Part shown: one piece after another, positions 33,422-35,924 of the stretch
How the letters are laid out: each line of letters starts with the position of its first letter
How positions within the stretch are numbered: the first letter of the stretch is position 1
Source of the DNA: Escherichia phage ECBP1
Sequence record: NC_018854.1
Length of the DNA stretch: 64,000 bases
Reading direction: 5' to 3' (one strand)
The notes under the pieces: model-generated
What the model was told of the DNA's origin: nothing
What the model saw: only the letters and a program-made list of their open reading frames with translations
Database searches by the model: none
Position numbers and translations under genes: made by a program

Positions 33422-33592
33422 ATGAACAAATTTACTATTCACTGGCTCAATGGAAAGGTTAGTTCTTTCATGGGTGGAGAACCCGTTGAAGGAAAGAAAG
33501 CATTTCACATTGAATCGGAAGGATGCAAAATCTTAGTACCGTATGCTTGGTATAAAGAAGGTGAAGTAGAAGCATTAAAAAAGAGTAGTTAA
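33422..33592 (+). CDS. small hypothetical protein
   Basis: ATG preceded by GAGG; track start 33326 is probably over-extended. Confidence 0.3.
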   Translation: MNKFTIHWLNGKVSSFMGGEPVEGKKAFHIESEGCKILVPYAWYKEGEVEALKKSS

Positions 33593-34010
33593 TATCGTGA
33601 AGGGTTCTGTTAGAATCCTTTGAGATAGGAACTCCTATCATAACCTTTCTTATCTTAATCTTTGCCGTATGGCACTGACGCTAGGGTTTATGCCCATCCG
33701 TCAGGTAGACTATTTTAAGAATGGGTTATCACAGAAAATGTAAAGCAACATTCGGGTTAATCAATGGCCTCTCCCTATAGGGGCCATTTCTGAATGATAG
33801 GCTATATCCCAAAGGTTAGTATCTTTGGGATAAGGCTTCAGATCCCTTATCAAACTAACCTCTCAATGTTGAGCATTTTAATCACATAAGCCCCTATATG
33901 GGCTGGGTTAAATGTCGGATAGCATAGCTACCTACAGCATCGAATTGTTAGGTCTTACATGCAACATAGGGTATAAAGGGAGGACTCGTCCCCTCCCTCC
34001 TATTATAATG

Positions 34011-34080
34011 GTCGAGGTAGCACGTAGGCATGTGCAGATGGTCGCTACTTCTCTCGCTGGTTCGAATCCAGCCCCCGACC
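34011..34080 (+). other. tRNA-like element (T-arm and acceptor present; no canonical anticodon arm)
   Basis: T-arm gctgg-ttcgaat-ccagc; 6 of 7 acceptor pairs; D-arm-like gcac-gtaggcat-gtgc; preceded by TATAAT. Confidence 0.3.
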
Positions 34081-34371
34081 TATTGACATCCTATCAATGA
34101 GTACATTAAGCTAACGTGCGGAGGTTTACACTATAGCTGGTGTAGGTGGAGAAGACGGCAGGGTAGCTACCTGTGCTTAGTGTACTCTTTGATAGTTTTC
34201 GTAAGCGATTATGCGGTTTTTTAGAAACGAACCAATAACATAAATGCAAACGATGATGTTGTTCTGATGGCAGCCTAATAAGCCAAGCGTCAGTCGGGAG
34301 TGAGTCGTCCTGATTATCAAACGACCATGGAGTGTCCTCGTCCGTGTATTAGAAACGGGGAGTTAATCAAT

Positions 34372-34450
34372 GGTGTGTGATAGCTCAAATAGGTAGAGCG
34401 TGAGGCTACAGTGCTGAATGGTTTGTGGGTTCGATTCCCACCCATGCCTA
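34372..34450 (+). other. tRNA-like element (D-arm and T-arm present; anticodon arm not foldable)
   Basis: D-arm tagctcaaataggtagagc; T-arm gtggg-ttcgatt-cccac; acceptor 6 of 7 with wrong spacing. Confidence 0.3.
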
Positions 34451-34516
34451 CAGTCCAGACGATATCTGAGTGACTATAAAAACAGATGGAGCCAGGTGGA
34501 ATCCCTGGCAATTAAT

Positions 34517-34582
34517 TCCGGTGTAGGTACTAGTGTCGTGCACGGCATAAGTGTTCTGGTTCGAGTCCAGACGCCGGAACCA
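34517..34582 (+). other. tRNA-like minihelix (acceptor + T-arm + encoded CCA; body too short)
   Basis: Acceptor tccggtg / cgccgga; T-arm tctgg-ttcgagt-ccaga; CCA encoded; only 31 nt between acceptor and T-arm. Confidence 0.3.
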
Positions 34583-34584
34583 AT

Positions 34585-34708
34585 TATCAGTTGCACGAGA
34601 TGGCTTGATATGTTCAAGTTTGGACTAAGTGTGACACCGCTAGATTGGAGAGCTGCTGCGGTAAGCTATAGACTCCAACCGGGGGTTCGAATCCCTCACT
34701 GATAACCA
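34585..34708 (+). other. tRNA-like element, about 121 nt with encoded CCA (too long for a canonical tRNA)
   Basis: Perfect 7-bp acceptor tatcagt / actgata; T-arm ggggg-ttcgaat-ccctc; CCA encoded. Confidence 0.3.
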
Positions 34709-35153
34709 ATTCAAAGTAGCATTGCACTAATCCATCCCGGAGTTCAAAGGCCAAACATGGAGCAGTGCTACTTTGAATTAGAAAGATTATGGGGGTAAGT
34801 CGTAACCATACGACGGCGTAAGTACCAGATGAGACTTCTGGACGCCCCTACCAGATTTGGGGTGTAACAGTTAAATCCAGTTGCCGGAAGTGCTATTCTA
34901 GATACGCTGCCAATGTGTGAACGGTAAGGCTGTACAGGACTCGGACTCCCGCCTCAAACCAAAGTCGCCAGGTACTTATGGCAAACGGGTAGTAACGAAC
35001 TAGTCATTCGTCAAACGCCCACCCTATTATGAGTCAGCAAGAACGCCTTCACTTAAACTTAAACAATATAAGCTTAACGCAATAATTATGTAGGGGTATG
35101 TAAGGATTGCGAAGAAGGAGCCAGTTAAAGTCTGGCATGACTCACTCATTTAT

Positions 35154-35227
35154 GCCCACTTAGCTTAGACGGGGAAAGCAACCGACTAATAATCGGAAGG
35201 TCACTGGTTCAAATCCAGTAGTGGGTA
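35154..35227 (+). tRNA. tRNA, canonical 74-nt cloverleaf; anticodon reads AAU (Ile) by standard numbering, unusual A34
   Basis: Acceptor gcccact / agtgggt; D-arm gctt-agacgggga-aagc; anticodon arm accga-ctaataa-tcgga; T-arm actgg-ttcaaat-ccagt. Confidence 0.6.
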
Positions 35228-35454
35228 CTTATTAATAGAGAACATAGTCCTGATTGCATTGCACTCTAAAGACAATGCCGGTGAGACAGTCCGGCACTCT
35301 AATTATTGAAAACATACCTAACGGTGTGAGTATGAGCAGACTATAATGCTCAATTACAGTTAACTATTATCGGACTATCAATCCTGTTTGCTGGTACAAG
35401 CACCGGTGGTAATAGTTAACTGGCCTAGCCTCGTTAGCTGCGTTAAAGCTACTA

Positions 35455-35484
35455 AGTCCCTCTTCGGAGGGACTTTTTTATTTG
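35455..35484 (+). terminator. intrinsic terminator ending the tRNA island
   Basis: agtccctc-ttcg-gagggact followed by ttttttattt. Confidence 0.65.
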
Positions 35485-35531
35485 AGTATTGATGAACGCA
35501 ATCATGCTTAAGTACAAATTCAAACCACTCT

Positions 35532-35924
35532 ATGAGGCTAATAATGGCAACAGTAAGTAAAGAAGCAATCGAAGCTAAGATTAAGAGCGTTTACTATTTT
35601 AATGGTGCTGATGCAGTGAAATCTGCATTCGTTGATCCTTCTGCACTCCCGGCAGATGATTTGGCTAACCTGGGTCTGGTAACCTATTGTGTTATCATTC
35701 TGGAAAACAATTTTAAAGTTGAAGGTGTATCTGCTTGCGTAGACCCAACTATCTATGATGAGCAGTTAGGTCGCCAGTATGCATATGAAAATGCATTCAA
35801 TAAGATTTGGGAATTAGAGGGCTACCTACTACGTCAGGCACTGCATGAGAAGGAAGAGACTGCTAAAGCTTTGGCTTCCTTTGCAGAAAACAATACCTGT
35901 GATGGTGGTGGTTGTACAATTTGA
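35532..35924 (+). CDS. hypothetical 130-aa protein (possibly the N4 gp49 family, by position and size)
   Basis: Last-but-one plus-strand gene before the vRNAP; family assignment from memory only. Confidence 0.45.
   Translation: MRLIMATVSKEAIEAKIKSVYYFNGADAVKSAFVDPSALPADDLANLGLVTYCVIILENNFKVEGVSACVDPTIYDEQLGRQYAYENAFNKIWELEGYLLRQALHEKEETAKALASFAENNTCDGGGCTI

Follow-up and report, generated by a model that had tools for sequence, protein, structure and literature searches.

The DNA analysed here is a stretch of 64,000 nucleotides (nt) from Escherichia phage ECBP1 (sequence record NC_018854.1), below called the window, which comes from an N4-like coliphage of the genus Gamaleyavirus. Between a small open reading frame (ORF) that ends at 33592 and the homologue of N4 gp48 (start at 35532 or 35544), all on the plus strand, lies an island that shares 99% identity with phages PD38 and Bp4. 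Beyond the gp48 homologue comes the gene for the virion RNA polymerase, on the minus strand. This is the 'tRNA island' of N4-like phages, situated between the gp47 and gp48 homologues; in N4 itself the gp47-gp48 gap holds tRNA-Asn, tRNA-Ser, tRNA-Thr, tRNA-Pro and one 'tRNA-Undet'. An earlier note on this DNA had seen no convincing protein-coding ORF in the island, and we likewise found none of at least 100 amino acids on either strand across 33593-35531. Three features absent from that note are a tag module at 34194-34361, an ACCA-ending unit at 34791-34853 and an intrinsic terminator at 35454-35479. The tag module is our main subject: it resembles the message half of a transfer-messenger RNA (tmRNA), carried among tRNA-like RNAs without a tRNA-like domain of its own.

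The module lies between tRNA-like units 1 and 2 of the island and consists, in order, of pseudoknot 1, the motif AUAAAU, a GCA resume codon, ten codons, the stops UAAUAA within a hairpin, and pseudoknots 2 and 3 (Table 1). The frame, directly preceded by AUAAAU, has no start codon, and an in-frame stop stands eight codons upstream. In several respects this is the layout of one-piece tmRNA (SsrA, RF00023): a proposed pseudoknot just upstream of an AUG-less frame; U at -5 and A at -4 before GCA; a 10-residue tag with an AND start and a hydrophobic and alanine end (ANDENYALAA in E. coli); and a stop in a hairpin loop, doubled to UAAUAA in the phage, then H-type pseudoknots. The stop-codon hairpin is thus followed by further pseudoknots as in tmRNA, but there are two of them instead of three. 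The phage module also differs in having neither a tRNA-like domain formed from its own ends nor a long P2 helix, in being flanked by self-contained hairpins or tRNA-like units, in scoring below all Rfam tmRNA thresholds, and in being phage-borne and sporadic where tmRNA is universal. Sequence homology to E. coli ssrA is limited to a 12-nt match at GCAGCYUAAUAA. With default settings ARAGORN reports no tmRNA in the window; its relaxed mode (-ps80) reports the tag ANDDVVLMAA with both stops. A permissive Rfam scan matched 34175-34278, over the tag region, to the permuted-tmRNA family RF04321 with 33.4 bits (E 1.9e-4; gathering score 47), and the copies in other phages give partial matches to RF04321 and RF01850 over the resume and tag region.

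Table 1. Features of the island, by position in the window (bp, base pairs; S1 and S2, first and second stems; z, fold z-score)
Feature	Position	Strand	Description
Leader of island	33593-34009	+	run of short perfect hairpins, no ORF
tRNA-like unit 1 (Ala-like)	34010-34081	+	8-bp acceptor with A-C mismatch, D arm, poor anticodon arm, canonical T arm, no CCA
Hairpin A	34093-34193	+	19-bp helix 34093-34111:34175-34193 with one mismatch; abuts tag module; z -2.75
Tag module	34194-34361	+	tmRNA-like message module
Pseudoknot 1	34194-34243	+	S1 34194-34199:34224-34229; S2 34209-34213:34239-34243
Tag frame	34246-34281	+	GCA AAC GAU GAU GUU GUU CUG AUG GCA GCC UAA UAA, read as ANDDVVLMAA and two stops
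Hairpin P5	34264-34293	+	stop codons in loop; pair at alignment columns 88:111 is G:C in 46 and A:U in 39
Pseudoknot 2	34295-34325	+	S1 34295-34299:34308-34312; S2 34304-34307:34322-34325
Pseudoknot 3	34327-34361	+	S1 34327-34330:34342-34345; S2 34335-34341:34355-34361
tRNA-like unit 2 (Cys-like)	34372-34451	+	directly after tag module, in place of 'hairpin B'
Two-hairpin module	34452-34516	+	AGUCCAGACGAUAUCUG...GCCAGGUGGAAUCCCUGGC; precedes the 66-nt unit in every N4-like locus examined
66-nt tRNA-like RNA	34517-34582	+	7-bp acceptor (U1:A72), U8 A9, no D arm, one hairpin, canonical T arm, A73, encoded CCA
124-nt tRNA-like RNA	34585-34708	+	7-bp acceptor, two long arms replacing D and anticodon arms, canonical T arm, A73, encoded CCA
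Long near-perfect punctuation-type hairpin	34711-34776	+	segment 34711-34857 has z -4.7; 0 of 200 shuffles fold as well
Further small unit	34791-34853	+	63 nt; as read from the sequence, acceptor-like helix, two hairpins (one with 7-nt loop), 3' end ...GCCCCU ACCA
Module	34858-34950	+	93 nt; 98% identical to N4, 93-95% to two other N4-like contigs
tRNA-Ile, anticodon AAU	35154-35228	+	Rfam 64.8 bits and ARAGORN; the only canonical tRNA
Intrinsic terminator	35454-35479	+	9-bp GC-rich stem, then T run; closes island

The fold of the module was tested with eight hand-specified helices (from pseudoknot 1, two in P5, and from pseudoknots 2 and 3) on an alignment of homologues; pairs were specified by hand because RNAalifold, faced with pseudoknots and indels, gave almost nothing on the whole module. 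Double-sided changes occur in 20 of the 37 proposed pairs, and none of 500 shuffles matches that covariation. When the helices are placed as proposed, 81.5% of cells are paired, compared with 39-49% when the partners are slid. Covariation is clearest in the second stem of pseudoknot 2 (CCGA:UCGG, CCAG:CUGG, CCAA:UUGG and GUCG:CGAC), in P5, and in the second stem of pseudoknot 3; the subtypes of pseudoknot 3 also covary as AUGG/CCGU, GCAG/CUGU, GGAG/CUCU and GUGG/CCAU. The second stem of pseudoknot 1 varies by subtype as well (CUUUG:CAAAG, UUAUG:CAUAA, ACUUU:AAAGU). Its first stem (RGUUUU:GAAACU) remains a proposal, since it is nearly invariant and its 5' strand was misaligned by MAFFT. We regard the anatomy described here as very probably right.

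Whether the frame behaves as a coding sequence was examined in 87 unique sequences. The last tag codon is Ala, written with all four codons (GCC 42, GCT 22, GCG 21, GCA 1); codon 9 is Ala or Val, with four codons each; codon 7 is CUG, UUG or AUG, with one exception; and a stop occupies codon 11 in 87/87 (TAA 86, TGA 1). Indels are present in both flanks and none falls within the frame. Column entropy at the three codon positions is 0.60, 0.37 and 0.94, and synonymous changes make up 27% of the codon differences in frame, compared with 2% and 15% in the shifted frames. At the peptide level the AND(D/E) start is retained, as is a hydrophobic end in ...AA or ...VA. On these sequence comparisons, the substitution pattern is a signature of selection on the peptide. 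Upstream of GCA, U is found at -5 in 84 of the sequences and A at -4 in all 87, in agreement with the frame-selection requirement of tmRNA; we take U85 and A86 to be their counterparts in E. coli tmRNA. The region upstream of the resume codon of E. coli tmRNA is treated in PMC2481249, and in an unbiased screen terminal Ala-Ala and LVA-type ends proved the most potent ClpXP degrons (bioRxiv 10.1101/2024.01.29.576913). Taken together, conservation at the codon level and covariation of the helices argue that the module is functional and translated, and we consider translation of the tag frame likely.

The same data bear on the possibility that the module is never translated and serves instead as a tmRNA-derived decoy or sponge (for ribosomal protein S1, RNase R, or SmpB on the ribosome), or as a base-pairing small RNA (sRNA), that damps or redirects host rescue. 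That no tRNA-like domain is attached to the module would suit such a role, as would the neighbouring STnc100/PasD cassettes, which have been described as Hfq-type sRNAs (bioRxiv 10.64898/2026.05.13.724894), and the tmRNA of phage DS6A, which has a tRNA-like domain only and inhibits host tmRNA (PMC4131195), indicating that partial tmRNAs can act as inhibitors. However, coding-type substitutions, a fixed length of 10 codons and an invariant stop position are hard to explain in an untranslated RNA, and the degron-like AA and VA ends are kept through synonymous changes. We think an untranslated role unlikely.

The module is widespread in phages. A blastn search with 34085-34372 returned 259 phage records, with almost always unannotated DNA under the match; these included N4-like phages, P1, RCS47, HK620, T1-like siphophages (DS8, Sf11 and others), Salmonella 7-11, a Vibrio phage and, among the Ackermannviridae (Vi1-like), Serratia 3M and Salmonella phages of Kuttervirus size. 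A motif scan of IMG/VR found the module in at least 120 viral contigs. Among the matches listed, 100 of the 102 unique copies have a 10-codon frame starting GCA AAC GA., placed 51-61 nt after a GUUUUCG motif. There are at least 18 tag alleles (e.g. ANDDVVLMAA, ANDDLMMVAA, ANDDLMLMAA, ANDEQFLAVA and ANEEMYLAVA), and even PhAPEC5-like close relatives of the window (L003/L004) carry another one, ANEEAYLMVA. The surroundings differ: the module lies between dmt and tRNA-Asn/Thr in P1, in the pR'-tQ late leader in HK620, and 10 nt downstream of its own TTGACA-17-TAGATT promoter in DS8. Of 5426 complete E. coli genomes, 350 (6%) carry it, at 141 chromosomal and 219 plasmid places, with an annotated feature under the module in only one row of the matches listed. 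The 219 plasmid places, of 360 in all, are on plasmids of about 95-115 kb, which are probably P1-like phage-plasmids. Among species-representative bacterial genomes the module was found in 4 of 100,044, three of them Enterobacterales, which marks it as phage cargo rather than host tmRNA.

We turn to the units around the module, which besides one canonical tRNA include at least four conserved tRNA-like RNAs that would not decode. Five plus-strand T-arm motifs (GGTTCRANTCC), which the earlier note had pointed out, are indeed present in the 64-kb window, clustered within 34059-35216, at 34059, 34428, 34558, 34684 and 35206; shuffled sequences average 0.12 and never exceed 1, and none of 100 reaches five. 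That note had also recognised a single intact tRNA, and only 35154-35227 passes the Rfam tRNA gathering score, with ARAGORN reading its anticodon as AAT. An AAU anticodon (A34) is unusual for a bacterial-type tRNA-Ile; a T1-like contig (L133) likewise yields a tRNA-Ile(aat) with ARAGORN. The canonical tRNA fold, a cloverleaf whose anticodon stem has 5 bp and whose loop has 7 nt, is not seen in the remaining four T-arm units, as had been reported; none of them reaches the RF00005 threshold (29 bits), and Rfam accepts one unit of the five. ARAGORN's default calls further include Ala(cgc) at 34010-34081 and Cys(aca) at 34373-34451, both with poor anticodon arms, and in Rfam both stay below the tRNA score, with at best 26.3 bits to tRNA-Sec (gathering score 47). 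The lengths of about 63 and 121 nt given for two CCA-encoding units agree with our 66-nt and 124-nt units once CCA is left off.

The Cys-like unit has homologues in 82 phage records, from T4-like (Straboviridae) phages of Klebsiella, Yersinia and Erwinia, RaK2-type jumbo phages and N4-like phages. They lie mostly inside tRNA clusters and are unannotated or labelled 'Undet'. Among five divergent copies, 10 of the 22 pairs show compensatory changes and the D arm is invariant, and throughout the family the 'anticodon' stem has 3 bp and the loop, of 5-6 nt, is free to vary in sequence and length. By this comparison the unit is a conserved tRNA mimic that would be unable to decode.

The 66-nt unit and the two-hairpin module before it (34450-34585) are 96% identical to N4, where the flanking protein genes do not align with those of the window at the DNA level; the two-hairpin module also occurs in T1-like DS8. 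ARAGORN -mt reads the 66-nt unit as a D-loop-replacement form with a 6-nt loop, and its fold has a z-score of -2.6. In variants of the unit, U:A is replaced by C:G in the hairpin and two pairs of the T stem change in a compensatory manner; relatives of N4 have the unit annotated as tRNA-Undet. We rejected it as a D-armless tRNA-Cys with GCA in the loop: the loop has 4-6 nt in most variants and 7 nt in one subtype only. A palindrome, GUGCAC, stands in the hairpin loop (34534-34547) of all variants and could allow loop-loop dimerisation. The 124-nt unit folds as a four-way junction, two of its arms being expanded, and five of its pairs show compensatory changes; in KP8/L115 it comes directly after the tag module.

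The earlier note had considered that the odd units might be decaying tRNA genes. For three of the four (the 66-nt, 124-nt and Cys-like units) this does not hold, because they are conserved across genera or families and show compensatory base-pair changes; on that evidence they are conserved non-decoding tRNA-like RNAs and not debris. Decay is possible only for the Ala-like unit, which comparison with related phages places in 12 phage records, all close relatives (91-100% identity), and which could be a young or decaying pseudogene; its acceptor mismatch is repaired in one relative (L005). The same note's other suggestions, tRNA-derived minihelices or a processed structured RNA, pointed in the right direction. 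The island is, as that note had it, non-coding, with one intact tRNA and several tRNA-like units that have no usable anticodon arm.

These comparisons also speak to a more general form of the decay argument, in which the island as a whole, module included, would be made of non-functional tRNA and tmRNA remnants hitch-hiking in recombination-prone DNA. The island is certainly a mosaic of variable content among close relatives, the Ala-like unit is confined to those 12 relatives, and the window's copy of the module has lost the usual linker after pseudoknot 3. Remnants would nevertheless not be expected to remain 96-98% identical between the window and N4 where flanking genes cannot be aligned, nor to show compensatory changes in every unit tested, and the tag module persists with an intact frame (in the 100 of 102 copies given above) in at least eight unrelated phage lineages. 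On sequence grounds the remnant explanation is largely refuted for units 2-4 and the tag module, and we give it hardly any weight.

Anticodon-less tRNA mimics have precedents in bacterial YrlA and other Y RNAs, in the 3' tRNA-like structures of plant viruses and in T4 stable RNAs C and D. These have an acceptor/T-arm stack with the anticodon arm missing or replaced, and tRNA-processing enzymes act on some of them; the two T4 RNAs, like the island units, are found within a tRNA cluster of a phage. The island units differ from all of these in having an encoded A73-CCA and canonical T loops, and a sequence or Rfam relationship to them was not found. A YrlA match in P1 (25.6 bits) extends across two real tRNAs and is spurious.

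If the module is a message half, the remaining problem is where its tRNA-like function would come from. Its flanks do not supply it in any fixed way. At the place of hairpin A, other phages have long hairpins of different sequence. On the downstream side, 76 of 94 unique loci have an uninterrupted stem of at least 9 bp that begins no more than 15 nt beyond pseudoknot 3, with free covariation in these stems; in some phages this hairpin contains a T arm, and in the window, KP8, L115 and L134 a tRNA-like unit replaces it. In KP8/L115 and L134 the replacing unit ends in ACCA and lies 7-8 nt after pseudoknot 3. A non-decoding tRNA-like motif is present within 1.2 kb downstream of the module in 66 of 89 loci.

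Three candidate ends for a one-piece molecule were rejected. The flanking strands do not form a P2 or acceptor helix, each long hairpin in Serratia 3M and the Ackermannviridae being self-complementary. The sequence GUGCUCUUUCC upstream of the module is not the 5' strand of a tmRNA acceptor; it forms the 3' strand of a local hairpin, together with a partner farther upstream. AACCA after pseudoknot 3 is not a CCA end, as it belongs to a consensus RMCAYAAY (ACAUAAC, GCACAAC and so on) that forms the base of hairpin B. An ARAGORN tmRNA call in another contig (L064) was spurious: it combined a nonsense tag with the 3' half of a genuine tRNA-Met.

The module could still be part of a complete, divergent tmRNA, one-piece or permuted, that takes its tRNA-like domain from distant strands of the island. 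ARAGORN -ps80 proposes such foldings, permuted-tmRNA RF04321 is the best Rfam match, and there is a 7/7 complement between 34026-34032 (AGGCAUG) and 34441-34447 (CAUGCCU), by the T arm at 34423-34439. However, the three ARAGORN models disagree with one another, the candidate strands lie inside other well-supported units, and complementary 7-mers less than 400 nt apart are not uncommon by chance. Moreover, the module's neighbours are quite different in other phages, and in DS8 its promoter lies just upstream, so that there is no conserved closing helix. A complete tmRNA is thus, in our judgement, quite improbable.

Two-piece tmRNA (from alpha- and beta-proteobacteria and cyanobacteria; RF04321) is similar in that tRNA-like and message functions are on separate pieces of one precursor. 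The known coding piece, however, starts with the 5' strand of the acceptor and pairs with its partner through the acceptor and P2 helices, and no such pairing was found in the phage island, where the tRNA-like units hold both of their own acceptor strands. The two-piece RF04321 layout was not found: the T-arm unit that precedes the module (34010-34081) is paired with a 5' strand of its own, and the DS8 module starts at its own promoter.

We favour a split arrangement of another kind. The best overall explanation, to which we would give a probability of about 0.6, is a cassette island with a tmRNA-like message half that would use neighbouring tRNA-like RNAs. Under this split arrangement, tRNA-processing enzymes would cut the cassettes at the flanking tRNA-like units and long hairpins and so release a tag RNA of about 170 nt. 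By analogy with trans-translation, stalled ribosomes would then enter the tag frame without initiation; since there are no initiation signals and yet there is selection at the peptide level, the frame would be read after a ribosome switches onto it. The nascent chains would gain a phage-specified C-terminal degron ending in AA or VA. The tRNA-like function would be supplied separately by an adjacent tRNA-like RNA, perhaps a CCA-ending unit in N4-like phages and an STnc100-type unit in lambdoid, T1-like and P1 phages; this is the weakest step, and alternatively the function may come from host components or may not be needed. Any specific route of ribosome entry is doubtful. One detailed version has a mobile message-half cassette of enterobacterial phages (P1, P22-like, T1-like, Vi1-like and N4-like) append a phage-chosen degron (...LMAA, ...MVAA or ...LAVA, against ...ALAA in the host), with the tRNA-like half acting in trans as part of a new multi-piece tmRNA, or with the message loading the empty mRNA channel and an ordinary Ala-tRNA reading GCA; we put it forward tentatively, as possible rather than probable.

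Several observations weigh against the split arrangement. No closing helix or tRNA-like domain could be formed from the module's ends in the window, and the three acceptor/tRNA-like-domain placements that ARAGORN -ps80 gives there are mutually incompatible. The alanine determinant G3:U70 occurs in none of the neighbouring tRNA-like units. Pairing in trans of the tag RNA, either to E. coli ssrA or to tRNA-like units of the window, was not significant (RNAduplex compared with shuffles; z-scores 0.0 to +1.0). In Serratia 3M the hairpins on either side, with pairing worked out by hand, are self-contained and unrelated in sequence, which together with its relatives rules out a shared P2-like helix. 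No Rfam tmRNA family reaches its gathering score in the window or in 19 other diverse module loci (0/20), and the window's copy departs from the others in the linker after pseudoknot 3. Lastly, N4 and one close relative (L005) are without the module, which is therefore dispensable.

The STnc100-type units belong to the same cassette arrays. STnc100/PasD (RF02076), known as a prophage sRNA, occurs in the lambdoid late-leader region, in P1 and in T1-like phages, and 51 of 89 loci have a unit of this type at 250-1200 nt on the downstream side of the tag module. Unlike the module they have no tag frame, and the literature treats them as Hfq-type base-pairing sRNAs, not as tRNA mimics. They can be read as a tRNA-like fold with a 7-9-bp acceptor (UGYGGUG/CACCRCA), AA, a D-like hairpin, an insert, a T arm and A73, in which the acceptor covaries between U3:A70 and C3:G70 (DS8, L018 2001-2125; L019; L016 2683-2803; L087; L094; L022). 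Their 5' strand GUUGUGGUG can alternatively pair with CACAAC after the tag module, which suggests a possible structural switch. In the window STnc100 remains below the 47-bit threshold, with 24 bits at 35402-35485, mainly on the terminator.

The rest of the island is likewise composed of small structured pieces. The leader is 87-98% identical in most Gamaleyavirus relatives, with its 3' half falling to 72-74% in two; it is not present in N4 and KP8 and has no Rfam match. Examples of its hairpins, kept only in Gamaleyavirus relatives, are GAUAGG-AACU-CCUAUC, UAUCCCAAAG...CUUUGGGAUA and GGGAGGACUCGUCCCCUCCC. The ACCA-ending unit after the long punctuation-type hairpin would be a sixth tRNA-like element, one without the GGTTCGA motif. 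For the 93-nt module that follows, neither a stable predicted fold (z +1.3) nor an Rfam match was found at 34858-34950. A motif UGUAGGGGUAUGUA is common to N4-like and T1-like phages, occurring at 35089-35102 of the window and in DS8 (L018, about 2150-2180); it stands about 50-70 nt upstream of a canonical tRNA wherever one follows, and may be a processing or promoter signal. Because the units share a strand and a single terminator, the island is probably one transcription unit ending at that terminator.

Overall the island is a mosaic with sharp module boundaries, its content varying between close relatives, and as judged from these alignments it is built from interchangeable RNA cassettes. 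In KP8-type phages (L141/L115), for example, the 124-nt unit precedes the 66-nt unit, the opposite of the order in the window. The same junction sequence precedes different cassettes, GUGCUCUUUCC in lambdoid phages and CUCUUUGAUA in N4-like phages, which suggests that cassettes are exchanged by recombination at the punctuating hairpins.

Phage-encoded derivatives of tmRNA are already known from DS6A, the Bxz1-group mycobacteriophages, Bacillus phage G and huge phages (PMC4131195; PMC11915505; PMC7162821). The DS6A RNA is the mirror image of the module described here, a tRNA-like domain only, with no tag, and demonstrates that a phage may retain just one half of a tmRNA (PMC4131195). Those of the Bxz1 group, phage G and the huge phages differ in being complete and ARAGORN-detected, and none is from an enterobacterial phage. 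Exhaustive surveys of tmRNA that include phage genomes list the mycobacteriophages, Bacillus phage G and the tRNA-domain-only DS6A alone (PMC4131195; PMC11915505), and the tmRNAs of huge phages are complete and detectable by ARAGORN (PMC7162821). We found no relevant paper on these tag sequences or on such an element, and no report of a tmRNA in an enterobacterial phage, in the openly searchable literature, subscription-only literature lying outside the search. Given that literature, the message half of a tmRNA without an attached tRNA-like domain, as these enterobacterial phage sequences appear to encode, would be new.

For phage genomes at large, the conserved units mean that many 'tRNA-Undet' and pseudo-tRNA calls can be reclassified as families of conserved non-decoding tRNA-like RNAs, and that the tRNA islands of phages are built as arrays of structured-RNA cassettes. 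The tag module sits in the model phages P1 and HK620 and, as noted, in 6% of complete E. coli genomes. A tmRNA message domain without an attached tRNA-like domain would mean that nature can separate the two halves of the molecule, and would give an experimental handle on resume-codon placement. If the detailed version above is true, by either of its routes, it would amount to a viral take-over of ribosome rescue through a previously unknown architecture of trans-translation. Phages of the P22 type and Mu have long been known to depend on host tmRNA, and the module bears on that dependence; it also suggests phage manipulation of ribosome rescue and of what becomes of truncated proteins.

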